Shown in pieces: positions 1 to 11,696 of a DNA stretch of 11,696 nt. The translations under genes and the position numbers were made by a program. Source of the stretch: a virus (Duplodnaviria > Heunggongvirae > Uroviricota > Caudoviricetes); IMG/VR virus record IMGVR_UViG_2617270952_000003; one strand, 5' to 3'. Position 1 is the first letter of the stretch. Each line of letters begins with the position of its first letter. The notes beneath the pieces are model-generated. The model was not told the DNA's origin. It did not search any database and saw only the letters and a list, made by a program, of their open reading frames with translations.

Positions 1-318
1 ATGAAAAAGATAGCTGCTATATCATTAATTAGTATTTTTATTGTGTCTGGTTGTGCTGTGCATAATGATGAGACAAGTATCGGTAAATTTGGTCTTGCAT
101 ATAAAAGTAATATTCAGCGTAAACTCGATAACCAATACTACACCGAAGCCGAAGCTTCTTTAGCCAGGGGCAGAATATCTGGTGCAGAAAATATAGTAAA
201 AAATGATGCAGCCCATTTCTGTGTTACTCAGGGCAAAAAAATGCAGATAGTTGACCTGAAGACAGAAGGTGCAGGATTACATGGCGTCGCTCGTCTGACA
301 TTCAAATGTGGAGAGTGA
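1..318 (+). CDS. Putative lipoprotein in the left host flank (105 aa)
   Basis: ORF starts at the window's first base with a hydrophobic signal-like N-terminus and a lipobox-like VSGC motif (MKKIAAISLISIFIVSGC). Lies outside the prophage att core. Confidence 0.55.
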   Translation: MKKIAAISLISIFIVSGCAVHNDETSIGKFGLAYKSNIQRKLDNQYYTEAEASLARGRISGAENIVKNDAAHFCVTQGKKMQIVDLKTEGAGLHGVARLTFKCGE

Positions 319-477
319 GAATATTTTTTGGTAAGCGTCAAACATGCGCGTTCTGGTTGTGCTTAGCCGGAACCTGTGCGAGCACGATGCCGTTACGTGA
401 AAGGCATCGTGCTATGAAGGGAGATTCTATCGATGTGGTCAATGGAAGACGGTTACCAGAGATAGGGCTTATGCATA

Positions 478-504
478 AAAAAATAAGCCCGTGTAAGGGC
501 GTTT
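478..504. other. Putative attL core of the P2-like integrase
   Basis: AAAAAATAAGCCCGTGTAAGGGCGTTT matches the P2 attP/attB core as recalled from memory (AAAAAATAAGCCCGTGTAAGGGAGATT) at 25 of 27 positions. It lies about 80 bp beyond the 3' end of int, as in P2. Confidence 0.55.
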
Positions 505-583
505 ATATACCCTTACAACAGGGGCTTTCAGCGGTGCAATGCGGGTTTGCGCGGCACGCAAGACCACTGAAAGCCATAATAAA

Positions 584-1597
584 CTACCCTACTGTGGACA
601 CTGTGTGGACACTCTGAGAGCCAACACCACCACGTAGAGGATTAAGCGTTATCGCGTCCTGTAGGTACTCAGGGGCGAAGTGCGCATATGTCATTGTCTG
701 CTCAATTCTTGAATGCCCAAGTATTCTCTGAAGCGTGATAATGTTGCCTCCGTTTATCATAAAGTGCGTGGCGAAGCTGTGCCGCAATGCGTGCGTAGCC
801 TGACCCGGTGGTAGGTCGGGTTTCAGCTCCTTCATTAGCCGTCTGAACGCGGGATAGTTAGCATCAGTGAACAGATAGCCACGCTTACCCGTTGTGATCA
901 TTGTTGCCAGTTCCTCGGATATAGGAACGGTTCGCGGCTTGTTGGTTTTTGTCTTAACGAAAGTGACGCGATTTTGAATGATATTTTCCGCTTTCAGTTT
1001 TGCTGCCTCACTCCATCTCGCGCCGGTGCTAAGGCAAAGAATCGCAATTTTTTTATTATCACCGTCCACTTTTGACAGCAGAAGCGCGATCTCCTCTTGC
1101 GTCAGGTAGCCGGTTTCTGGCTTATCCTCTTTGAGTCTTTTAAGACCTCGGAAAGGATGCTCCCCGAAAAATAGCTCCGCATCTATCAACGCGGTAAACA
1201 TCCCGCTAAGACACGTTAAATCACGATTTATACTCGATGGCTTGATGCCTTGAGAACGCCGCACAGTGCTGTATTGGCTTATCAATGACTTAGTAATCTG
1301 AAAGGCACAAGGGTCACTGGTTATCTTTGTGAACAACTCTAACTTGCCCAGGTAATCTCGGCCGTGAGTTTCATACTTGCCTTTCAGCTCCCACCAGATT
1401 TTTGTTAGCTCTGACAGATGCCGCTTATCTGTCGGTTTCGCCAACCATTCTTTGTTGTGATGGTTGTACTGGGTATGCTTCTCGAAAGCGATAGCTTCGC
1501 TTTTCTTGTCAAATTTCCTGCGGATGCGCTTTCCGTTGCGCCCTGCAGGTCTAATGTCCACTTCATAACGACCATCATCGAGCTTTTTAACAGACAT
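584..1597 (-). CDS. int: Tyrosine integrase, P2 Int-like
   Basis: Minus-strand ORF. I place the start at the internal Met (MSVKKLDDGRYEVDIRP...), which has a GGGAGG Shine-Dalgarno just upstream on the minus strand. C-terminal region has tyrosine-recombinase motifs (HALRHSFATHF, LGHS...TMTYAH). Sits next to the att core. Confidence 0.9.
   Translation of the reverse strand: MSVKKLDDGRYEVDIRPAGRNGKRIRRKFDKKSEAIAFEKHTQYNHHNKEWLAKPTDKRHLSELTKIWWELKGKYETHGRDYLGKLELFTKITSDPCAFQITKSLISQYSTVRRSQGIKPSSINRDLTCLSGMFTALIDAELFFGEHPFRGLKRLKEDKPETGYLTQEEIALLLSKVDGDNKKIAILCLSTGARWSEAAKLKAENIIQNRVTFVKTKTNKPRTVPISEELATMITTGKRGYLFTDANYPAFRRLMKELKPDLPPGQATHALRHSFATHFMINGGNIITLQRILGHSRIEQTMTYAHFAPEYLQDAITLNPLRGGVGSQSVHTVSTVG
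593..612. repeat. Direct repeat TGTGGACAC x2, possible Int arm-type binding sites
   Basis: TGTGGACAC occurs at 593-601 and 604-612, one helical turn apart, beside the att core and overlapping the 3' end of int. It resembles the P2 Int arm-site consensus as I recall it. Confidence 0.35.
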
Positions 1598-1693
1598 AAA
1601 GCCTCCCGATGATGTTACTGCGTACTTCAATTTCCTGATTTAAATAACAAAAACTCACCGTGCATTTACTGCACAGATAAGCACCGTAAATGG

Positions 1694-1990
1694 TTAGCCA
1701 GTTTTCTGGTCTGAGTGGGGTGACGTTGTTGTCTGCTGCCCAAAGTGCGCGAGAGCCGGTGCAATCTGCCCAGCTTCTGGTGATATCGTCTCAGTCATGA
1801 ACCACATGGTATATTTTTTGAACTGTGGATGATTCAAAATCTTCATCACTGCTTGTATGCCCATATCTTTTACTCCCTTCTCATAACTAGAAAGAGAGCT
1901 ATACGGAACTCCAGTTAAGTCACTGAATTCTTTTCTATTCATACGTTCCGACTCACGCATGATGGCCAGCTTCTCGTTGACGGGTATCAT
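1694..1990 (-). CDS. C: Immunity repressor, P2 C-like (about 98 aa)
   Basis: Divergent from cox and upstream of int, as in P2. Start placed at the internal Met (MIPVNEKLAIMRESERMNRKEFSDLTGVPYSSLSSYEKG), which gives an HTH-like N-terminus. The C-terminal tail (QIAPALAHFGQ...TTSPHS.QKTG) matches my recollection of P2 C. Confidence 0.75.
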   Translation of the reverse strand: MIPVNEKLAIMRESERMNRKEFSDLTGVPYSSLSSYEKGVKDMGIQAVMKILNHPQFKKYTMWFMTETISPEAGQIAPALAHFGQQTTTSPHSDQKTG

Positions 1991-2073
1991 CGTAATTAAC
2001 ACTCCACTATTGATAGAAAAACGATAACGGAGTAGTCTTCGCTTCGTTACCGCAGATTTATGGCTCCAATATG

Positions 2074-2104
2074 GCAATTAAAAGCCATTAGGAGCAATTA
2101 AAAC
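2074..2104. promoter_or_regulatory. Putative C-repressor operator / early promoter region (direct repeats GCAATTAAAA)
   Basis: GCAATTAAAA occurs at 2074-2083 and 2094-2103, 20 bp centre to centre, in the C-cox intergenic region. P2 C repressor is known to bind direct repeats flanking the early promoter. A GAGGAA ribosome-binding site precedes cox. Confidence 0.4.
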
Positions 2105-2125
2105 ACTAACGAGGAATAGTCACAA

Positions 2126-2401
2126 ATGAATAGGGTCATTGAGAGCGCGAGCGACGCGGTTCCGTATCAGGAGTTTGCGCGTCTTATTGGTAAAACCCCT
2201 GCTGCTGTCAAAGGGATGATTGAGAAAGGCAAACTACCGATAGTTGAGATGACTGATCCGCAGTCTACAAGTGGGAGAGCAGGGGAATACTGGGTATATC
2301 TGCCAGCATGGAACAAAGGCATGAAGATGGCCTATGACAGTCGCCCTAAAGAAATTCGGGATGGTTGGTTGATGTGGTTGGGATTAGGTGAACCAGCATA
2401 A
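2126..2401 (+). CDS. cox: Cox-like excisionase/transcriptional regulator (91 aa)
   Basis: First rightward gene, divergent from C. Length matches P2 Cox (91 aa). Position and orientation are as in P2. Confidence 0.7.
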   Translation: MNRVIESASDAVPYQEFARLIGKTPAAVKGMIEKGKLPIVEMTDPQSTSGRAGEYWVYLPAWNKGMKMAYDSRPKEIRDGWLMWLGLGEPA

Positions 2402-2411
2402 GGAGCCAGAA

Positions 2412-2582
2412 ATGAAAGAGCCACGTTGTATAGCTCAGTTACTGCGTAACGAAAGTCCACGCCCGATGAAGTTCAACATCACTCATGGTAAAGGGCGTAA
2501 AGGCATCATCATCCGCACTCGCAAGCCTGGATTTATTGCTATGGCTAAACGCTTTATGAAATCCCGAGGGATATCGTTATGA
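2412..2582 (+). CDS. Small early-region ORF (56 aa), P2 orf78-like by position
   Basis: ATG at 2412 is preceded by AGGAG with a 6-nt spacer. Its stop overlaps the start of B (ATGA at 2579-2582). Basic small protein. Confidence 0.5.
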   Translation: MKEPRCIAQLLRNESPRPMKFNITHGKGRKGIIIRTRKPGFIAMAKRFMKSRGISL

Positions 2583-3079
2583 CGGTTATGACTCTTGCAT
2601 TAGTTCAAAAACAACCTGCAGCTCTACGCGTCGTTATAGGAAAGCATCTTGCGGAACCTCGCTGGCACGATACCTGTGATTTTTATAATCAGATGATGGA
2701 GCGTGACCGCTTGACTGTCTGTTTTCATGCTCGGTTAAAACAGCGTCACGCAGTAATGCGCTTTGAAGAAATGAATGATGTCGACCGCGAACGTCTGGCT
2801 TGTGCTATCGATGAGCTGCGCGCTGCTTTTTCAAAACGTCGTCAGGTTGGCGCAAGTGAATCTGCATATATTAGTTTTCTAACGGTGGGTCAGCGCCGCT
2901 CTTTATTTCTACACGCGGGATTGAGTGAGGTCGAGTTCAATCAGCCTTACTGGCGCATTGACGAAGATGCTTGTTATTGGCGAGAGAAACTATTCCGCGC
3001 TTTGCGTGAGCTTTTTGGGTTATTTGAACACGCGCCAACGATATTAACCTCGGTAAAGCCTGAGCAGTATTTACATTAA
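2579..3079 (+). CDS. B: Replication accessory protein, P2 B-like (166 aa)
   Basis: Same length as P2 B (166 aa) and same position between cox/orf78 and A. Translationally coupled to the upstream ORF. Confidence 0.6.
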   Translation: MTVMTLALVQKQPAALRVVIGKHLAEPRWHDTCDFYNQMMERDRLTVCFHARLKQRHAVMRFEEMNDVDRERLACAIDELRAAFSKRRQVGASESAYISFLTVGQRRSLFLHAGLSEVEFNQPYWRIDEDACYWREKLFRALRELFGLFEHAPTILTSVKPEQYLH

Positions 3080-3145
3080 TTAATCTGGATTCGTTTTATT
3101 ACACGCCTTACTGCGTGGGGATTCCTTTTGTCTGGAGATAGGCAA

Positions 3146-3364
3146 ATGCATAAACAAAATAAAGTGCCGACGTGTGTGCTCTCGGTACATCTGGCGCAAG
3201 CGTTGCGCGATGCGCAGCTCGATACCGCGACCCGTTTATCCTCTCATTTTGATCGCCTAATTGCGCACATCAGTAAGTTAGAACTCAACCGCACCGAGAT
3301 CATCGAGCTATTGGGGCAAGAGTCCGAAAAATTGCACAACTCAATTTTTCATTGTGCTTGCTAA
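3146..3364 (+). CDS. Small early-region hypothetical protein (72 aa)
   Basis: ATG at 3146 with GGAG upstream. Lies in the P2 orf80-83 interval. Confidence 0.45.
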   Translation: MHKQNKVPTCVLSVHLAQALRDAQLDTATRLSSHFDRLIAHISKLELNRTEIIELLGQESEKLHNSIFHCAC

Positions 3365-3386
3365 TCAATTTTAGAAGGAGACAAAA

Positions 3387-3662
3387 ATGAGTATCCGTAT
3401 CGAGATAAATCATCAGTATGTAGTTACAAGCGATCGCTACCAGTTCATTTTGCAGGAAAAGAAAGTGGCGACTGCTGGAAAAAATAAAGGTAGCGAATGG
3501 CTTGATACTGTCGGGTATTACCCGACGATTCAAAAACTGATTTCTGGTCTGGTGCTACATGACCTTTTAAATGGCGGTGCTGATAGTTTTGCGGCGTTGG
3601 GTGAGCAGGTCGAGCAGTTGGGACTGCAATGTCAGACCGCGTTTTGTGCTGATGGCCGTTGA
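3387..3662 (+). CDS. Early-region hypothetical protein (91 aa)
   Basis: Strong ribosome-binding site (GAAGGAGACAAAAATG). Its stop overlaps the A start. P2 orf82/83-like by position. Confidence 0.55.
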   Translation: MSIRIEINHQYVVTSDRYQFILQEKKVATAGKNKGSEWLDTVGYYPTIQKLISGLVLHDLLNGGADSFAALGEQVEQLGLQCQTAFCADGR

Positions 3663-5943
3663 GACTCGGGGGCGTATTGCCCCCTCGCTAGCCCTGCCAA
3701 TATCTAAGCGCACCGGCGATACTTTCGTTGGTGCTTATCCCTGGAATGCTCCCCGCGCTGCCATTGGCCGTGACAGACCCCTTACACGTGCCGAATTCCG
3801 TCAGGTGCAAGGTGTTTTATACCGGATTGACCGCCTGCCTTTCTTTCTTAAGACGTTGTTTACTTCCCGTTATAACTTCATTCGTCGCACAAAGAGCCCG
3901 CCCGGGGCGCTCTATTTCCTGAAAAACACCTTTGAGCGGAAGCTGTTGCCGCGTCTTGAGCGCGTTAACGAGCTGTGCGGGATGAATGAATCTGCGTCGA
4001 TTGGTTTCTTGTCTGAGCGTGACGAATATGCGCGCTTGCCTGATATGAATGACAAAGAGCTGAAAAAATTTGCGGCCAGAATTGCCGCGCAGCTCTGGCG
4101 TAAATACGAGGAACTCAGCGACGAATGGGCTGAGGCATTCGGCGGTAAAGAGACCCTTTTCACCGATGAGGCGCAGGTGCACATATATGGTCAGGTGGCT
4201 GGTGTTGCACGCGCGTTCAACTTAACCCCGCTCTACTGGAAAAAATACCGTAAGGGTCAGATGACGATCCGCATGGCGTTTTCCGCTATTTCCCGTCTGA
4301 TAAAAGATGATTGGTGGGTTAACCAGCTCAAGGCGCAGCGTATGCGCTGGCGCGAGGCGCTGCTTATCGCTGCCGGTGAAGTCAACAAAGACCGTTCACC
4401 TTACGCCAGCAAAATGGCGATCCGCGAGGTTCACTCGCGCCGGCTGGCTAATCTCGAATACCTGAAATCCTGTGAGCTGGAAAACAAAGTTACCGGCGAA
4501 CGTATCGACCTCATCAGTAAAGTCATGGGGAGTATTTCAAACCCTGAAATACGCCGTATGGAGCTGATGAACACCATTGCCGGAATTGAACGCTATGCGG
4601 CCAGCGTTGGTGATGTGGGAATGTTTATCACGCTGACCACGCCGTCGAAGTATCACCCGACCCGACAGGTCGGCAAAGGTGACAGCAAAACGGTGCAGCT
4701 CAATCACGGCTGGAACGAAACCGCATTCACCCCTAAAAACGGCCAGCGCTATCTGTGCCGAATCTGGAGCCTGATGCGTACCGCTTTCAAAGATAACGAT
4801 TTGGAAGTGTATGGGATGCGCGTTGTCGAGCCGCACCACGACGGCACGCCACACTGGCATATGATGCTTTTTTGCAAACTCAGTCAGCGTAAAGCTATCA
4901 ACGAAATTATGCGTCGTTATGCCCTCAAAGAGGACGGACACGAAAAGGGCGCGGCAAAACAGCGCTTTGAGTCGCGTCACCTTAATCAGGGGGGCGCGGC
5001 GGGTTATATCGCCAAATACATTGCCAAAAATATCGACGGCTACGCGCTTGACGGTCAGCTCGATCACGATACCGGCAAATCTCTGAAAGATACGGCCGCA
5101 GCCGTAACCGCATGGGCGTCTACATGGCGTATCCCTCAGTTTAAACCGATTGGCCTCCCGACAATGGGCGCTTACCGCGAACTGCGTAAGCTGCCGCGCG
5201 GGGTGAGTATCGCCAGCGAGTTTGACGACCGTGTCGAGGCCGTCCGGGCTGCTGCAGATGAGGGGGAATTTGACCTGTACATCAGCGCGCAGGGTGGGGC
5301 AAACATGCCGCGTGATGCTCAGGCGGTCAGGGTCGCCCGTAAGGTGACGGATGAGGTAAACGAATACGAGGAGGATATCGAGAAAGTGGTCGGTATTTAT
5401 GCCCCTCATCTTGGGGTGAGCCGCGTACATGTAACCCGTACAGCGGAATGGCGCATAGTTCCAAAGGTTTTGGCCGTTGAGCCTTTGACCTTAAAAAGCG
5501 GCTCTGCCGCGCCTCGGAGTCCTGTCAATAACTGTGGAAAGCTTGCCGACGGTGGCGATCCAGTTATGACACCTACACCGTCTGAGCAAGCCGCAGCGGT
5601 GTTAAATCTGATTGAGGCCGGGGTTATCGGCTGGAATGAGCCAGACGTCATGAAGGTTCTTAACGGCGCGTTAAAAGCTGGCGCACCTCGCAATAATCGC
5701 CAGCAAAGAAGCAATGCGCCACTCAAAACGAGCGAGCAAGCTCCATCAGCCAGGATGACAAAACCAGAAAGGGATCGCGTGGCGAAAATTCGTTTCGATT
5801 TGGCTCAGGAGGGCATTACCCCGGAACGGTGGGCGCTCGAAGCGCTGGCGCGTGGGGCAACGGTGATTTATGGCGATAAAAAAATCAAATACGCGGCTGC
5901 TGATGAGTGGCCGGGATTCTCAATTCAAGAGGAGCAGAATTAA
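3652..5943 (+). CDS. A: Rolling-circle replication initiator endonuclease, P2 gpA-like (about 763 aa)
   Basis: HUH-type motif PHWHMM at nt 4849-4866 and twin-tyrosine motif GYIAKYIAKN at nt 5002-5031, both hallmarks of the phiX174-A / P2-A initiator superfamily. Start placed at the internal Met MAVETRG (3652), giving a length close to P2 A. Confidence 0.85.
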   Translation: MAVETRGRIAPSLALPISKRTGDTFVGAYPWNAPRAAIGRDRPLTRAEFRQVQGVLYRIDRLPFFLKTLFTSRYNFIRRTKSPPGALYFLKNTFERKLLPRLERVNELCGMNESASIGFLSERDEYARLPDMNDKELKKFAARIAAQLWRKYEELSDEWAEAFGGKETLFTDEAQVHIYGQVAGVARAFNLTPLYWKKYRKGQMTIRMAFSAISRLIKDDWWVNQLKAQRMRWREALLIAAGEVNKDRSPYASKMAIREVHSRRLANLEYLKSCELENKVTGERIDLISKVMGSISNPEIRRMELMNTIAGIERYAASVGDVGMFITLTTPSKYHPTRQVGKGDSKTVQLNHGWNETAFTPKNGQRYLCRIWSLMRTAFKDNDLEVYGMRVVEPHHDGTPHWHMMLFCKLSQRKAINEIMRRYALKEDGHEKGAAKQRFESRHLNQGGAAGYIAKYIAKNIDGYALDGQLDHDTGKSLKDTAAAVTAWASTWRIPQFKPIGLPTMGAYRELRKLPRGVSIASEFDDRVEAVRAAADEGEFDLYISAQGGANMPRDAQAVRVARKVTDEVNEYEEDIEKVVGIYAPHLGVSRVHVTRTAEWRIVPKVLAVEPLTLKSGSAAPRSPVNNCGKLADGGDPVMTPTPSEQAAAVLNLIEAGVIGWNEPDVMKVLNGALKAGAPRNNRQQRSNAPLKTSEQAPSARMTKPERDRVAKIRFDLAQEGITPERWALEALARGATVIYGDKKIKYAAADEWPGFSIQEEQN

Positions 5944-6407
5944 TGAGCAAAATCCATGAGTTAAAAATTGCACCTGAGTATTTTAACTCTGTGATATCTC
6001 AGGAAAAACGTGCTGAATTTCGTCTCAATGACCGCGATTATTCTAGCGGTGATATTCTCGGGTTGCATGAATGGGAACCGGTAAACAGATATACCGGGAA
6101 ACGTGTATCAGTGAGGGTGACAAACGTTACGGATTTATCTGAATGGGCGGAAAATTATGTGATGCTGAGTTTTCAGTTAATGATGCCAGATGTCCAGTGC
6201 GGTATGTCCCTAATGAACTGGAAAGAGTTAAGCGAGAAGGGGCTTGTTTTCAGAGTTAATCACGAAATTCTACACCCGTTAGGGCTGGCTATTAGATATG
6301 AAACACTTAACAGCGTTTCTGGTAGGGCTTACATCGCTGATGATGGTGTCTGGCAATATTCCGACAAGTTGGTCGCAGATGCTAAAAAAAATGGGTGGTT
6401 AAAATGA
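5943..6407 (+). CDS. DUF3850 / ASCH-like protein (154 aa), P2 orf91-like by position
   Basis: Start overlaps the A stop (TAATG) with a GAGGAG ribosome-binding site. N-terminus MSKIHELKIAPEYFNSVISQEKRAEFRLNDRDY resembles the DUF3850 (ASCH-like) fold family found downstream of A in P2-like phages. Confidence 0.6.
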   Translation: MSKIHELKIAPEYFNSVISQEKRAEFRLNDRDYSSGDILGLHEWEPVNRYTGKRVSVRVTNVTDLSEWAENYVMLSFQLMMPDVQCGMSLMNWKELSEKGLVFRVNHEILHPLGLAIRYETLNSVSGRAYIADDGVWQYSDKLVADAKKNGWLK

Positions 6408-6643
6408 GTCATATGCGAATGATGCCAGTGCCGCCGATACATTCAACGCAAAACATTAAGCTGATGGCCGTCGTACATCGCCTGCAACAAATTATGATTA
6501 ACGAGAATCTGACCCCTGACGAACTGGTCGGGTGTGCCGGTGTCGTCCGGGATAATCACCGCAAATACAGCGATATCAGCAATCCGAAAATTGAGGCGTT
6601 TCGGCCACCAAATATGGCAAAGCCACCACCGCGTCGACCATAG
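6404..6643 (+). CDS. Hypothetical small protein (79 aa)
   Basis: ATGA overlap with the preceding ORF's stop and GGTGG upstream. No recognisable motifs. Occupies the position where P2 carries tin/old. Confidence 0.35.
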   Translation: MSHMRMMPVPPIHSTQNIKLMAVVHRLQQIMINENLTPDELVGCAGVVRDNHRKYSDISNPKIEAFRPPNMAKPPPRRP

Positions 6644-6925
6644 CAAACGCCGCCGGTGCTGAAACTTGTTTTCAGTGCCAGCGGTGTTGAGCAACGAGCC
6701 CCGCGAGACGTTAGCCTGCACCGTAGAGACCACCCCCAACCGGCACGATTAAAGTCGGTTTTATTATGCAATTTTCCCACAATTTCCCGGTTTTTTAGCC
6801 GTGCATGCAACAGGTGCATTTTTTTGCATACGTTGGGGATGCCTGTTCTGGCCGCGCGCCGCCAGAGCAGGCGCGGATCCAGAGTGGTCATGCAACTGCA
6901 TTAAAAACGACCCATAAAGCGGGCA

Positions 6926-6944
6926 GGCGAGGCGGGGTAAGCAT
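6926..6944. other. Putative cos site (19-nt cohesive-end sequence)
   Basis: GGCGAGGCGGGGTAAGCAT matches the P2/186/P4 cohesive end as recalled (GGCGAGGCGGGGAAAGCAC) at 17 of 19 positions. It sits in a GC-rich non-coding stretch (6644-6943). Confidence 0.5.
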
Positions 6945-7015
6945 TGCGCGCGCCTGTCAAAGATATTAAGATTGTCTCAAAATCGATTGATTTTATTGAA
7001 CTAATGGAGCTAGGA

Positions 7016-8572
7016 ATGATTAAGGGTATAGGTCTTCAAAACTTCAGGAGCTTTGTCAACAAAACGTTTATTGATTTAAAACCAATTACAGTATTTGTTG
7101 GTAAGAACAGCAGTGGTAAAAGTTCCCTATTGCGCACATTTCCTTTACTTCGTCAATCTGTAGAAGAAAATACTACTGGCCCAATACTATGGTATGGGAG
7201 ATATGTGGATTTTGGCGATTTTACAGATGTACTTTCCCGAAACTCTGAAAAAAAAGAAATTACGTTTAGTTTTTCACTCTCAATTCCGCCAGAGGTTTCA
7301 CAAAGATATACATATTATCGTTCTACTGATTTAGCAAAGCAACCAACAGATATTGAAGCAGAGTTAACTGTTTACTCTAAAGATAAAAAAACAAAAACGA
7401 AAACGATTAAGCTTATATTGGCTGATTTAACAATATTTATTTCAATGGATGAGAGTAGTAATGTTAAATTACTCATTGAATCAGATGATAAAACAATAGA
7501 GCGTGATGGGATAATAGCTAAAAATCTTGGGCAGTTCATACCAAATCTAATTTTGAAGGGTAAGGAAGACAGTCCTCCTCCAAGCACATCATTCTATTTG
7601 AGACATTCTAGGCATGACAGGGCGTTAGAATTGTCATTTATTGATTCAGCGGCGAAATATATAAAGAAATATTTCCATACTAAATCTGATATAAATCAAG
7701 TGACAGAGGCATTCAAAAGAATTGGCTTTATACCCAAAGCGTACGCTAGTAAATTAGTTGCTTTTCTATTTAAGGAACAAAAAGTTTTTAGTAGAAACTT
7801 TGAATTTCAACATGATGAAATAATGAATGAGTTATATCCATTTATAATTGGATGGAATATTAATAATCTTATAGATATAATAAATACATCCTTGTCAGAT
7901 TCATTCAGAAATGTAAAGTACATAGCTCCACTGCGTGCTACATCAGAAAGATTTTATCGTTTTCAAGATTTACAGGTTAATGAGATAGATCATACTGGTT
8001 CCAATCTTGCAATGCTTTTGAATTCATTAAGACCGGCTGATAAATCAAAATTTGAAGATTGGACAAAGTTAAATTTTGATTTCATTATCAAGGTTGAACA
8101 AAGTGGCTCTCACTTTGCAATTTTAATAAACACCGGTGAAAATAGTGAGAACTATAATGTTAGTGATATGGGGTTTGGTTATTCTCAGGTTTTGCCGATA
8201 GTTACAGCCATTTGGCTTGAGACAGAACGTCGTGCTACCACGGTTAGAAAACCTATAACATTTATCATTGAGCAGCCAGAATTGCATTTACATCCGTCAT
8301 ATCAGCATAATTTAGCAAGTATTTTTGCAAAAGTAGTAACTAAAGCAAAAGAAAATAATGTAGATTTGAAGATAATTTTTGAGACACATAGCCAGACCAT
8401 GATTGAAGCACTTGGTGAATATATTGAGGAAAATGAAAGTCTTTCACAGGATGATATTTCAATACTGGTATTTGAAAAAGATGATAAGCAGCAGACTATA
8501 GTTAAGAAATCTTATTTTGACGAGAATGGTTTCCTAAAAAATTGGCCGGTTGGCTTTTTCTCGGGTAAGTAG
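7016..8572 (+). CDS. OLD-family / AAA_21-type ABC ATPase (518 aa), candidate defense ATPase (PARIS AriA-like or Septu PtuA-like architecture)
   Basis: Walker A GKNSSGKSS at nt 7101-7127. Walker B / D-loop FIIEQPELHLHP at nt 8261-8296. Signature-like SDMGFGYSQ and H-loop-like FETHS. Lys/Thr-rich insert (KDKKTKTKTIK) between the ATPase lobes. ATG at 7016 is preceded by GGAG. The gene is AT-rich relative to the phage backbone. Confidence 0.8.
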   Translation: MIKGIGLQNFRSFVNKTFIDLKPITVFVGKNSSGKSSLLRTFPLLRQSVEENTTGPILWYGRYVDFGDFTDVLSRNSEKKEITFSFSLSIPPEVSQRYTYYRSTDLAKQPTDIEAELTVYSKDKKTKTKTIKLILADLTIFISMDESSNVKLLIESDDKTIERDGIIAKNLGQFIPNLILKGKEDSPPPSTSFYLRHSRHDRALELSFIDSAAKYIKKYFHTKSDINQVTEAFKRIGFIPKAYASKLVAFLFKEQKVFSRNFEFQHDEIMNELYPFIIGWNINNLIDIINTSLSDSFRNVKYIAPLRATSERFYRFQDLQVNEIDHTGSNLAMLLNSLRPADKSKFEDWTKLNFDFIIKVEQSGSHFAILINTGENSENYNVSDMGFGYSQVLPIVTAIWLETERRATTVRKPITFIIEQPELHLHPSYQHNLASIFAKVVTKAKENNVDLKIIFETHSQTMIEALGEYIEENESLSQDDISILVFEKDDKQQTIVKKSYFDENGFLKNWPVGFFSGK

Positions 8573-8574
8573 TT

Positions 8575-9687
8575 ATGTTGATTAATATCGAAAATGCGAC
8601 ACCTGAGAAGGTGCTAAATAACTCATTTGCCATAGCGGTTGAAAATATACTTCGGGCATTCGCTGAACAAAAACACTTGGTTATAGGGGCAAGGGTTTTT
8701 TTTAAAACTATTATCAATGATCAAAGCGGGCTTTATAGCCTTTCATCAAAAAGTTACGCGCAAGAGGCTTTGTCGGGTCTAACAGAGTACTATGCTATCT
8801 TGGATCAGGTCTCATTTTATGTATCTGTCGACTTTAATATTAGTGATAAATCATTTAAATGGGTTCAGATCGGTGAATCTTTTAAATTTGTTTGTGGTCC
8901 ATTGTATTTTAATGACTCGGCACAATTGCAAAAAACGAAAATAGTATGTGAAAATCCTTTGGATTCTGATTTTTTTAAGGTTATAGCGGCTCATTATGCC
9001 GAAGGTATTAACTTATCTCGCTGCGAAATGGGTTTTATCGCTCTAAATGGCGGTGGGGGCAGTACTAAGGATATATTCGAGCGTGCAATTCAAAATAATG
9101 AGATAGTTTTTTGTATTGTGGATAATGACAAAAAACATCCTGGAGCCCCATTCGGAGGTACTTGCTCACATTTTTTGGGCTCACAAATTACTCGCTCAGG
9201 TTTCGTGGAGATTTTAGATGTACATGAAATAGAATCTCTAGTTCCTTTATCGACAATTGAAGATGTATTAAGAAGTCAAAGTCAATTGCAACAAAAAGAA
9301 AAATCTCTCATTTTCTTTAAGCATCTTTGCTCCGTAGATGAATCAGTAAAATTTTATATTGACCATAAAAAAGGTTTTGATTTTAAAACAGCCCTTGAAC
9401 TCGATCGAAAACATGGTGCATATTGGCGTCCGATATTAAAGAAGCTTGATATAAAATATGATTGTGAGTATATCGAATCAAAACGTTGTAGCTGCAACGC
9501 TGCTTGTGTAAGTTATGATGGTTTTGGAGAGAATTTGCTCAGCAATACATTGAAATATATACAAAAGGGAAGTTTAAAAAAATATAATCCTCACCTAACA
9601 CCAGTGCTTTCTGATAAATGGTATAAGTTAGGTAAGAATTTCTTTAGTTGGAGTTGTGGTCCATATAAAAAAGCAAGGGTTGGTTAA
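8575..9687 (+). CDS. TOPRIM-like (DUF4435-like) putative nuclease partner of the ATPase (370 aa)
   Basis: Start is 2 nt after the ATPase stop, suggesting translational coupling. TOPRIM-like motif 1 IVCENPLDSD (Glu at residue 126, nt 8950-8952) and DxD motif CIVDNDKK (nt 9121-9129) about 57 residues later. Gly-rich loop NGGGGS between them. C-terminal Cys cluster CEYIESKRCSCNAAC. The assignment is from motifs only. Confidence 0.55.
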   Translation: MLINIENATPEKVLNNSFAIAVENILRAFAEQKHLVIGARVFFKTIINDQSGLYSLSSKSYAQEALSGLTEYYAILDQVSFYVSVDFNISDKSFKWVQIGESFKFVCGPLYFNDSAQLQKTKIVCENPLDSDFFKVIAAHYAEGINLSRCEMGFIALNGGGGSTKDIFERAIQNNEIVFCIVDNDKKHPGAPFGGTCSHFLGSQITRSGFVEILDVHEIESLVPLSTIEDVLRSQSQLQQKEKSLIFFKHLCSVDESVKFYIDHKKGFDFKTALELDRKHGAYWRPILKKLDIKYDCEYIESKRCSCNAACVSYDGFGENLLSNTLKYIQKGSLKKYNPHLTPVLSDKWYKLGKNFFSWSCGPYKKARVG

Positions 9688-9690
9688 ATT

Positions 9691-9727
9691 ATCACAGCCC
9701 CGATAAAGTGGGCTGTGATGTTATTAT
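9691..9727 (+). terminator. Rho-independent terminator of the cargo operon
   Basis: Inverted repeat ATCACAGCCC / GGGCTGTGAT (9691-9700 and 9710-9719) with a 9-nt loop, followed by a T-rich run (GTTATTATCTG), just after the partner gene stop. Confidence 0.5.
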
Positions 9728-9782
9728 CTGTGGTTCTTGAGTTACAGGGCTGAATATAATGTTGAGATGTTTATTTTGAAAA

Positions 9783-10232
9783 TCAAAGTGAATATTTTTT
9801 AAATCTTATAACTTCCATTTCTAACCAGTTGTTTAGTTCTTTGAACCGTTCCTGTAAAGGAGTTAACTCATTTCGGACAAACACTTGTGCAGCTTTTACA
9901 ACATCACCAAAACCGCCAACATTGTTAGGCATAATTCCCATCATTTGTGGTGGTACCCTATGAGCACTCAACAAATCTTCTGCACTAACCTTTTTGATAT
10001 TGAAAAAATCATCTTTCGTGGCGACTTCACTCAACGGCACAATCTTGATGCCATCCGGTTTGCCGTTGGGCGCGTAGAAAAACAAGTTTTTGAAATTCCC
10101 GAGTCCTTTCGAGTCACGCATCGCGTTGCGGAGCGACTCGACGTCGGTACACAGCCTCAACGGGAGCGGCTTCACGACGGGCTTAGAGCTTGAGGTTAAG
10201 GTTTCTGATGTGGAGTATGAAAGCGAGGAAGT
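9783..10232 (-). pseudogene. Q: Portal protein gene fragment (3' portion only), P2 Q-like, truncated
   Basis: Minus-strand frame encodes ...LLSAHRVPPQMMGIMPNNVGGFGDVVKAAQVFVRNELTPLQERF..., which looks like the conserved C-terminal region of PBSX/P2-family portals. Only about 130-150 codons remain (P2 Q is about 344 aa). The frame is closed by a stop at 10233-10235 and ogr occupies the upstream space. Confidence 0.6.
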
Positions 10233-10316
10233 TTAACGGCGTGTGTTGTTTATGTGTTTGTTTTATAAGTAAAAATTAGTAAAATTAACACATTGAATAC
10301 GCCGGAGACCCTCATC

Positions 10317-10538
10317 ATGTTTCATTGTCCGAAATGCCATCATGCCGCCCACGCCCGCACGAGTCGCTATTTTACTGATACCACAAAAGAGCGGTATCAC
10401 CAGTGCACAAACATTAACTGCAGCTGCACGTTTGTGACCACTGAAACAGTCGAGCGTTTTATCGTGTCGCCGGGGGAAGTAGTACCCGCGCCGCCGCATC
10501 CGACATCATCAGGTCAGCAACAAATTCACTGGATGTGA
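10317..10538 (+). CDS. ogr: Ogr-family zinc-finger late-gene transcriptional activator (73 aa)
   Basis: MFHCPKCHHAAHARTSRYFTDTTKERYHQCTNINCSCTF carries the C-x2-C...C-x4-C zinc-finger signature of P2 Ogr / P4 Delta. GGAGA ribosome-binding site 8 nt upstream. Confidence 0.9.
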   Translation: MFHCPKCHHAAHARTSRYFTDTTKERYHQCTNINCSCTFVTTETVERFIVSPGEVVPAPPHPTSSGQQQIHWM

Positions 10539-10546
10539 CAAACGAG

Positions 10547-10572
10547 AAAGCCCCGCGAATGCGGGGCTTTTT
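10547..10572 (+). terminator. Rho-independent terminator downstream of ogr
   Basis: AAAGCCCCGC-GAAT-GCGGGGCTTT hairpin with a GC-rich stem, followed by TTTTT. Confidence 0.8.
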
Positions 10573-10844
10573 GCAACTTTTAGATCAGTTATGTTAAGTA
10601 CATTTCCGTCGGCAAAGTGCCAGGAGCGGGTTCTAGAGAGTGACTAACGTTAGTTATATGTGTAAAATTCCTTAAAAATAAGAAGGATATATATCCATGA
10701 CAGCAATTGCATATTGGATTAACTGAGAATCAATTGAGAAATTTTGGGGGGGGCAAAAAATAAACTAGCTAATTAAATTTTTATAAATAACGAATATAAG
10801 ACTGCAAGCCATTTAACAAAAGTTTATAAATAAAGGAGTCAGTT

Positions 10845-11696
10845 TTGAACAATATCCCCATATCTACTCAATGGACTTTAGACGCTACGGGTGAAGTTGG
10901 ACGCTCATCAGTAAATTCTGTTTATATGATTATATGTCCTGCGACAGGCTCGAAAGGATCTGGTTTTTTAATAGATAATGGGTTAATAGTAACGAACGAG
11001 CATGTTATCACTGGATGCTCTACAAATCAGATTTTCGCAATTTCAGCTTATGGACAGAAGATTCCAATTTCTCAAAAATGGATAGATTCTGATCGCGATT
11101 TAGCTGTGCTGAGACCTGCCATTACCCAGACTGGTGGGCTAAGTATTGTTAAGGATAATGATCTTAAAGTTGGTGAATCAGTAACAACTTGGGGATACCC
11201 ATTAGGATACAACGGTCCTGCACCGTTACTATCCGTTGGTTATCTAGCAGGATTTAACTCATACCAAACCGCCAAGGGACAAAAAAAACATCTAGTGGTA
11301 AATGGGGCATTTAACTCAGGAAATTCTGGTGGAGCTCTTTTAAAAGCTTCAGATAATAAAGTAATAGGTATTGTAGTGAGTAAGCATGCTCCTATCAGTC
11401 AATACCATCAATCAGCTATTGAAGCTTTGTCTGAAAATATGAGTGGCGTCACCTATACCGCTACTAATGACGCTGGAGAAACTAAAAGTTTTGTAGAATC
11501 TCAAATTGTAGCAGAATTATTGATTCATATGAGAAGTCTAACTCAAGTTATGATTGGAGAAGCAATTGCAGCAGAGGAATTACTTTCGATGCTTAGCGAA
11601 ATTGACTTGAGTCCACCACAATCTATGTCAAGAAATGCCTTATGTCATTGCGGGAGTGGAAAACGCTTCAAAGAATGTCATGGAAAGATATCCTAG
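10845..11696 (+). CDS. Trypsin-like (S1/Trypsin_2) serine protease with C-terminal SEC-C zinc-binding motif (283 aa)
   Basis: Catalytic triad contexts TNEHV (His), DRDLAVL (Asp) and GNSGGAL (Ser). C-terminal CHCGSGKRFKECHG is a SEC-C motif. TTG start with AAGGAG 7 nt upstream. AT-rich. The ORF ends exactly at the window edge (TAG at 11694-11696). Confidence 0.7.
   Translation: MNNIPISTQWTLDATGEVGRSSVNSVYMIICPATGSKGSGFLIDNGLIVTNEHVITGCSTNQIFAISAYGQKIPISQKWIDSDRDLAVLRPAITQTGGLSIVKDNDLKVGESVTTWGYPLGYNGPAPLLSVGYLAGFNSYQTAKGQKKHLVVNGAFNSGNSGGALLKASDNKVIGIVVSKHAPISQYHQSAIEALSENMSGVTYTATNDAGETKSFVESQIVAELLIHMRSLTQVMIGEAIAAEELLSMLSEIDLSPPQSMSRNALCHCGSGKRFKECHGKIS

Follow-up and report, generated by a model that had tools for sequence, protein, structure and literature searches.

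A P2/186-family cos site adjoining an ATPase cargo module at a known accessory-gene position in an Escherichia coli prophage

The 19-mer at positions 6926–6944 of the window, by which we mean the whole 11,696-nucleotide stretch of DNA analyzed here, is very probably the cohesive-end cut site of cos in a prophage of the P2/186 family (Peduoviridae) integrated between yegR and yegQ of Escherichia coli, the cut being predicted by homology. A low-GC cargo module (6952–9782, + strand) follows and replaces the spacer of ∼170 bp that normally separates cos from the portal gene Q. Our comparisons confirmed that the cos site is real and that the position proposed for the cargo is correct, and they also established that this position was already known, having been described in 1996 and catalogued in 2022.

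Identity of the 19-mer as cos

Read directly from the window, positions 6926–6944 (+ strand) are GGCGAGGCGGGGTAAGCAT. When up to three mismatches were tolerated, the degenerate pattern of the family, GGCGWGGCGGGGWAAGCAY, matched the window once and matched none of 200 dinucleotide-preserving shuffles, and the 19-mer is also an exact match, the sole one in the window, to GGCG(A/T)GGCGGGG(A/T)(A/T)AGCA(C/T). A preliminary description of this DNA had likened the site to the P2/P4 cohesive end and had proposed aligning it against the cos regions of P2, 186, and P4. That likeness proved essentially right: the annotated cohesive ends of 186 (GGCGTGGCGGGGAAAGCAT) and P2 (GGCGAGGCGGGGAAAGCAC), the latter identical to that of P4, each agree with the window at 17 of 19 positions, and the surrounding 62-bp block (6890–6951) agrees with 186 at 58, with P4 at 53, and with P2 at 51 of its 62 positions. 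The cos sites of these three phages thus share with the window the same 19-mer family, the same flanking core, and the same place on the map, between the gene A region and the convergent portal gene. They have 19-nt 5′ cohesive ends, whereas the window copy encodes no terminase and its cut is a prediction.

For a wider comparison, we sampled relatives as 80 loci of different species, collected via the portal protein, and 120 viral contigs, collected via the cos pattern, with all loci oriented on the cos 19-mer. Every base of the window 19-mer was found at the same position in natural variants among these 200 related loci, although the exact 19-mer was absent from the sample. Its A at position 5 and its T at position 13 are each natural variants, here combined; the T at position 13 also occurred in five sampled loci, but alongside T rather than A at position 5. 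In the linear genome records of four phages (186, Erwinia phage EtG, and Salmonella phages SEN1 and PSP3), the last base aligns with 6925, so that the left cohesive end would begin at 6926, corresponding to base 1 in those phages, with the qualification that some of these record ends may have been set by homology and that none represents virion DNA of the window lineage. On the map, the 19-mer lies between gene A (3652–5943, + strand) and a fragment of Q (9783–10150, − strand), and the A/cos/Q order is identical in 186, in P2, and in an intact prophage of E. coli WP2-S18-ESBL-07 (NZ_AP021944.1; locus L003 of our survey).

These same data bear on the idea that the 19-mer is a chance or relic likeness and that the real packaging site lies elsewhere. 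Two of the 19 bases do differ from each reference phage, but no shuffled sequence matched the pattern, the flanking 43 bp are conserved too, the position between A and Q is syntenic, phage genome records end exactly at the site, and 194 of the 200 relatives have one such site per locus. We consider this idea effectively refuted and take 6926–6944 as cos in what follows. As a separate observation on the sample, survey loci L029, L051, and L052 carry a second, weaker cos-like 19-mer (e.g., GGCGTGGCTGCGTGAGCAT, with three mismatches), and viral contig L155 has two good cos matches 306 bp apart.

The conserved cos core

Across 193 unique family sequences, per-column information content was high from −36 to +26 and collapsed at +27, which corresponds to window position 6952. 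The conserved core delimited in this way (6890–6951, + strand) comprises 36 bp on the A side, the 19-mer, and then TGCGCGC on the Q side, and its family consensus is ATGCAACTGCATTAAAACCGnCCC..AAAGCGGGCA, followed by the 19-mer and TGCGCGC. The window retains all 62 bp. In the parts of two articles that deal with it (PMC5694545, PMC2231350), the P2-family cos core is given as 55 bp and attributed to Ziermann and Calendar (1990), and the 62-bp block, as drawn from the alignment, fits this reported core. Most of the core lies toward gene A, at the right end of the mature genome, which makes it lopsided.

Outside the core, a moderate conservation peak at −110 to −95 coincides with TGCAT/ATGCA-type repeats (6804–6832, + strand), and CATGCAAC is exactly repeated at 6804–6811 and 6889–6896. 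Motifs of the TGCAT/ATGCA type therefore occur ∼95 to 120 bp upstream of the cut and again within the core (6889–6902), and both places are conserved family-wide; judging from this pattern, the repeats are possibly an accessory terminase-binding sequence. A structured element in the cos core was also considered and was dropped because the core folds no better than shuffled sequence.

Layout of the prophage and an intact relative

The window opens in host DNA with yegR (1–318, + strand), followed by the attachment core AAAAAATAAGCCCGTGTAAGGG (478–499) between yegR and yegQ. The prophage genes then run from an integrase (584–1630, − strand) and a repressor (1694–2077, − strand) through a cox/apl-type gene (2126–2401, + strand) to the replication gene A (3652–5943, + strand; Pfam Phage_GPA, 5.7e-109; annotated as a replication endonuclease in L003), which is the left landmark of the A–cos–Q hotspot discussed below. 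Two ORFs, assigned by Pfam and by the L003 annotation, fill the A side of cos (5943–6643, + strand): a DUF3850/ASCH gene (5943–6407, + strand; Pfam DUF3850, 1.8e-18), homologous to P2 orf91, which is itself annotated as DUF3850, and a small ORF (6413–6643, + strand; L003 annotation). No defense cargo was found on this A side (5943–6643). Beyond the cos 19-nt cohesive end (6926–6944, + strand) and the cargo lies the 3′ fragment of the portal gene Q (9783–10150, − strand; Pfam Phage_portal), which represents its last 122 codons and whose translation ends in EVIRFKKYSL and a stop, as in P2 Q and 186 W. The window closes with ogr (10317–10538, + strand) and a trypsin-like/SEC-C gene (10845–11696, + strand). 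E. coli K-12 presumably carries a P2 remnant, ogrK/yegZ, at the same yegR/yegQ locus.

The trypsin-like peptidase gene is low in GC, has a C-terminal SEC-C motif, and is present in the NZ_AP021944.1 prophage (L003 32682–33533). It matches the protease parts of the PADLOC models RT-Protease_XI, PDC-M35A, LmuA, and HamA, and its place within the prophage, in the interval from ogr to attR, marks a third accessory-gene site of the element.

The intact relative is a 32.5-kb prophage (NZ_AP021944.1 1,807,264–1,839,792) at the same yegR/yegQ site, annotated with terminase, capsid, lysis, and tail genes, D, and ogr. It is 99.95% identical to the window over positions 1–10150 and 100% identical over 5900–10150, a block that contains cos, the cargo, and the 3′ end of the portal gene. 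The cos–cargo–portal order therefore exists in an apparently complete prophage, this being the one inspected in full of 39 genomes that carry the cargo. Comparison with intact relatives had been put forward as a check on gene order, and in NZ_AP021944.1 the proposed order stands beside a complete set of annotated late genes.

The window copy, in contrast with this intact copy, lacks 21,050 bp of late-gene sequence that begins inside Q and ends inside D. Homology of the Q fragment to the intact portal gene stops at 10150, where a 5-bp GGTAC microhomology (10146–10150) marks a deletion junction that joins the truncated Q to the last 90 nt of D, and the D tail reads through to a stop at 10236. 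Window positions 1–10150 correspond to L003 789–10937 and positions 10146–11696 to L003 31983–33533. The terminase, capsid, and tail genes are absent from the window element; with every morphogenesis gene lost, this copy is unable to package itself, and its cos is at best usable in trans. The terminase genes deleted here are present in the intact relative. No att repeat was found inside the window, because attR lies beyond the window end; it was located in the intact relative, whose att cores are at L003 1265 and 33772, and the remnant between att cores would measure 11,457 bp, compared with 11,624 bp for P4.

A cos usable in trans raises the question of whether a superinfecting or co-resident helper of the P2/186 type packages and spreads the 11.5-kb remnant, much as P4 or a cos plasmid is spread. 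The remnant keeps int, the repressor, cox, gene A with its origin, cos, the cargo, and ogr; its cos core is fully intact; its length of 11,457 bp is close to the 11,624 bp of P4; and, in the section of PMC2231350 that describes them, plasmids of 5 to 10 kb with a P4 cos fragment were packaged when P2 and P4 functions were supplied. Against this, we found the deletion junction nowhere else in 5426 E. coli genomes, in IMG/VR, or in JGI metagenomes, which gives no sign of spread, and the element is without a Sid-like capsid-size gene, so that a monomer would under-fill a P2-size head. The deletion itself may be natural, recent, or an assembly artefact. Helper-driven spread of this remnant is, in our judgment, quite improbable.

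The cargo module

The cargo module (6952–9782, + strand) is ∼2.8 kb long and has a GC content of 0.338, compared with 0.556 at positions 6700–6951 and 0.543 in gene A. On its left, the match to cargo-free relatives breaks off at 6951–6952, 27 nt from where the 19-mer begins, so that the cargo edge, the end of family-wide conservation, and the fall in GC coincide at 6952. On its right, homology to other phages resumes at ∼9792–9798, a few codons (∼10–15 nt) inside the 3′ end of Q. The cargo had been proposed to lie between cos and the 3′ end of Q, and it does, occupying 6952–9782 with the Q end at 9783, in the window as in NZ_AP021944.1. It had also been expected to be the first DNA after the left cos end of a packaged genome; by geometry this would hold for the intact relative, and the window element, which has no morphogenesis genes, cannot yield a packaged genome on its own.

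The first cargo gene (7016–8572, + strand) encodes a 518-aa AAA_15/AAA_21/DUF3696 ATPase, identified by Pfam (AAA_15, 2.4e-27; AAA_21, 7e-19; DUF3696, 3.6e-07) and by PADLOC (NsnB, 3.7e-55; PDC-M55A, 6.9e-46; AriA, 3.1e-31). Mechanical ORF calling starts it at a TTG at 6944, overlapping the last base of the cohesive end. Translation almost certainly begins instead at the ATG at 7016, which has a GGAG ahead of it and 71 nt between it and the 19-mer. A promoter scan of 6600–10300 found no promoter-like site between cos and this ATG, the number of matches not exceeding that in shuffled sequence. The second gene (8575–9687, + strand) encodes a 370-aa partner, WP_000906719 in the NZ_AP021944.1 prophage. 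It has no Pfam family, a weak PADLOC match to PDC-M55B (2e-4), and no significant match to a relative with a solved structure; an IVDNDKK stretch in it might, as a guess from the residues, be a divergent Toprim-like DxD motif. Taken together, the two-gene module resembles candidate anti-phage systems at the level of domains, and such a role is a prediction.

Between the cargo operon and the convergent Q lies a strong hairpin (9692–9718), whose folding energy is −20.8 kcal/mol (z-score, −4.8) for the + strand and −17.8 kcal/mol (z-score, −5.5) for the − strand. It is likely a bidirectional terminator that replaces the tQ/tW terminator of the family; the tQ/tW sequence of cargo-free relatives is absent from the window. 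The module was present in 39 of 5426 complete E. coli genomes, always as a single chromosomal copy with the same flanks, and was absent from 50,697 phage records, so that none of the phages with mapped ends has it. In P4-like and other sampled loci we found only distant relatives of the ATPase (∼30% identity), which provides no evidence of the module moving between helper and satellite.

The cos-to-Q site in relatives

Cargo-free relatives have a cos-to-Q spacer of 160 to 175 bp that ends in the tQ/tW terminator. More than 500 bp separated cos from the Q stop codon in 36 of 80 portal-anchored loci, 31 of which exceeded 1 kb (the largest credible distance being 4.2 kb), and in 9 of 94 cos-anchored viral contigs. 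When loci were divided by portal type, this threshold was exceeded with the window-type portal in 25 of 40 portal-anchored and 3 of 8 viral loci, with the 186-type portal in 6 of 32 and 3 of 31, and with the P2-type portal in 2 of 5 and 3 of 55. The inserts are diverse, their 99 ORFs falling into 85 clusters, and as in the window they are mostly low in GC and mostly transcribed away from cos. Seven of ten of the largest insert ORFs, taken from different loci, had PADLOC matches at E ≤ 1e-5. The matches among inserts were to Avs5, Lamassu LmuB (twice), Olokun OloA, the UG36 defense reverse transcriptase (DRT), a PD-T4-4/HEC-02-type ATPase, and, weakly, PDC-S12.

Counted from the first base of the 19-mer, all inserts in 43 cargo-bearing loci started at +27 or beyond, most of them between +27 and +51, with the window at the minimum. 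This left limit of Q-side inserts marks, as a comparative estimate, what would be the functional right edge of cos. A contrary reading would be that signals to the right of +26 are needed, that insertion crippled cos, and that cargo-bearing prophages are packaging-dead relics. It is true that the whole spacer of ∼170 bp, including the usual tQ/tW, is missing from the window. However, the spacer past +26 is unconserved across the family, the 43 independent loci carry inserts from +27 to +51 or later beside complete portal genes, a prophage annotated with a full complement of late genes carries the same cargo, and the cos core of the literature, as stated in the passages of PMC5694545 and PMC2231350 that give its length, is 55 bp. 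We therefore regard a crippled cos as very improbable and retain +26 as the estimated right edge of cos.

The A-to-cos and cos-to-Q distances were negatively correlated in two samples (Spearman −0.29, p 0.011, and −0.33, p 0.006), with kinship ignored. Similarly, and again with kinship ignored, Q-side cargo was present in 18 of 24 prophages with a short A side, as against 13 of the 50 others. This anticorrelation may reflect a limit on genome size or one cargo load per phage. In the loci sampled, the A–Q hotspot appears as two sub-sites split by cos, with the side that is used depending on lineage.

Discussion

The position that the cargo occupies is a recognized one. According to the relevant passage of PMC5694545, which cites Dodd and Egan (1996) and Nakayama (1999), the position between cosL and Q is a suggested hotspot for foreign genes in P2-like phages. 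As cited in the sections of PMC5694545 and PMC6868368 that discuss them, the retrons Ec67 and Ec86 of Dodd and Egan (1996) replace DNA between cos and a terminator of a 186-related prophage. In the portion of Rousset (2022) that presents it (PMC9122126), the cos-proximal gpA–gpQ interval is a defense hotspot with 1,650 arrangements in 18,150 loci, and the hotspot definition is repeated in the corresponding portion of a 2026 study (PMC13586616). WP_000906719, the 370-aa partner, is listed 11 times among the P2 hotspot loci tabulated by Rousset (2022). In our own comparison, the cargo (6952–9782) lies between A and Q, where relatives carry nothing or unrelated cassettes. The P2 map runs A, orf91, tin, old, cosR, with a gap of only 167 bp from cosL to Q. 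The preliminary description had placed P2 old and tin across cos from the present cargo, between A and cos, and was therefore accurate on this point. Of the two options that it offered for the window, a variant insertion point or a different arrangement of the hotspot, the former did not hold, as cosL–Q is itself a known hotspot and falls within the gpA–gpQ interval of Rousset (2022).

Comparison with the described insertions places the window among them and also shows where it departs. The retron insertions Ec67 and Ec86, as represented in the cited passages, likewise place foreign DNA on the portal side of cos, directly beyond it, in a 186-type prophage; the cargo there is a retron and here an ATPase–partner module. 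At the left boundary the window agrees with the type of Dodd and Egan (1996), with foreign DNA directly after the cos core and the native spacer replaced. At the right boundary it differs: that type, as it is summarized, keeps the portal-operon terminator, whereas the replacement in the window also removes tW/tQ, reaches the last codons of Q, and has a new hairpin instead. Several relatives share the right-boundary pattern of the window, which argues for a boundary variant rather than a different site. The gpA–gpQ hotspot, in the description given by Rousset (2022), is likewise located between gpA and gpQ by cos, highly variable, and rich in defense systems; within it, the window cargo is on the Q side of cos, whereas P2 old and tin are on the A side. 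Foreign ORFs between cosL and the Q homologue, as in the window, are also described for the group of Ralstonia phage RSY1 and by Nakayama (1999), both in the relevant text of PMC5694545, and these RSY1-group insertions, compared here by description only, differ from the window in hosts and in types of cargo.

The satellite P4 offers a further parallel. Its hotspot (gop, beta, cII) likewise starts right after cosL and reads away from it, with gop from base 247. The far flank of the P4 cargo is the integrase gene, whereas that of the window cargo is the portal gene, and P4 is without structural genes by design, whereas the window element lost them by deletion. Since Q-side cargo shares with P4 the geometry of a cos core followed by cargo, helper and satellite could exchange cargo by one crossover in the shared core. 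The 11.46-kb deletion derivative, for its part, retains int, immunity, replication, cos, the cargo (a candidate defense module), and ogr. We regard it as unlikely that either a P4-sized satellite of 11.46 kb, mobilizable by a helper, was born from its own helper lineage by one deletion, or that helper and satellite trade cargo through a single cos-core crossover.

We propose that the terminase of an intact relative would recognize a core of ∼55 to 62 bp (window 6890–6951), mostly on the gene A side of the cut, would introduce nicks staggered by 19 nt to yield the cohesive ends of the linear virion genome, and would then package that genome. Core binding, 19-nt nicking, and packaging by terminase are established for P2 and P4. 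The DNA required for cos function would end 7 bp past the 19-mer. Because the spacer from +27 to the Q stop (∼170 bp) appears from the comparisons to hold no required signal, cassettes there could be exchanged by recombination, with the conserved cos core and the 3′ end of the portal gene probably serving as its two anchors. The spacer has been replaced repeatedly by foreign gene cassettes, here by an ATPase with its partner, read away from cos and ending at a hairpin of their own. By likeness to lambda cosB, the lopsided core hints that packaging may start from the A side, in which case the cargo end would be last in. As to which genome end P2 or 186 packages or injects first, the literature searched yielded only citations of Chattoraj and Inman (1974).

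What these data add is a description of the gpA–gpQ hotspot as two-sided, with the portal lineage of the window mainly using the cos-to-Q side; the passages of the two gpA–gpQ papers that define the hotspot (PMC9122126, PMC13586616) do not separate the two sides of cos. That no insert enters the 26 bp counted from where the cohesive end starts also allows the functional right edge of cos to be estimated by comparison. For the prophage itself, cos at 6926–6944 sets the zero point of the map and allows the cargo module to be defined as 6952–9782. The general understanding of P2-type packaging and of its hotspots is unchanged, and the ATPase and its partner are best viewed as a swappable accessory cassette in a recognized defense hotspot rather than as part of the core machinery of the phage.
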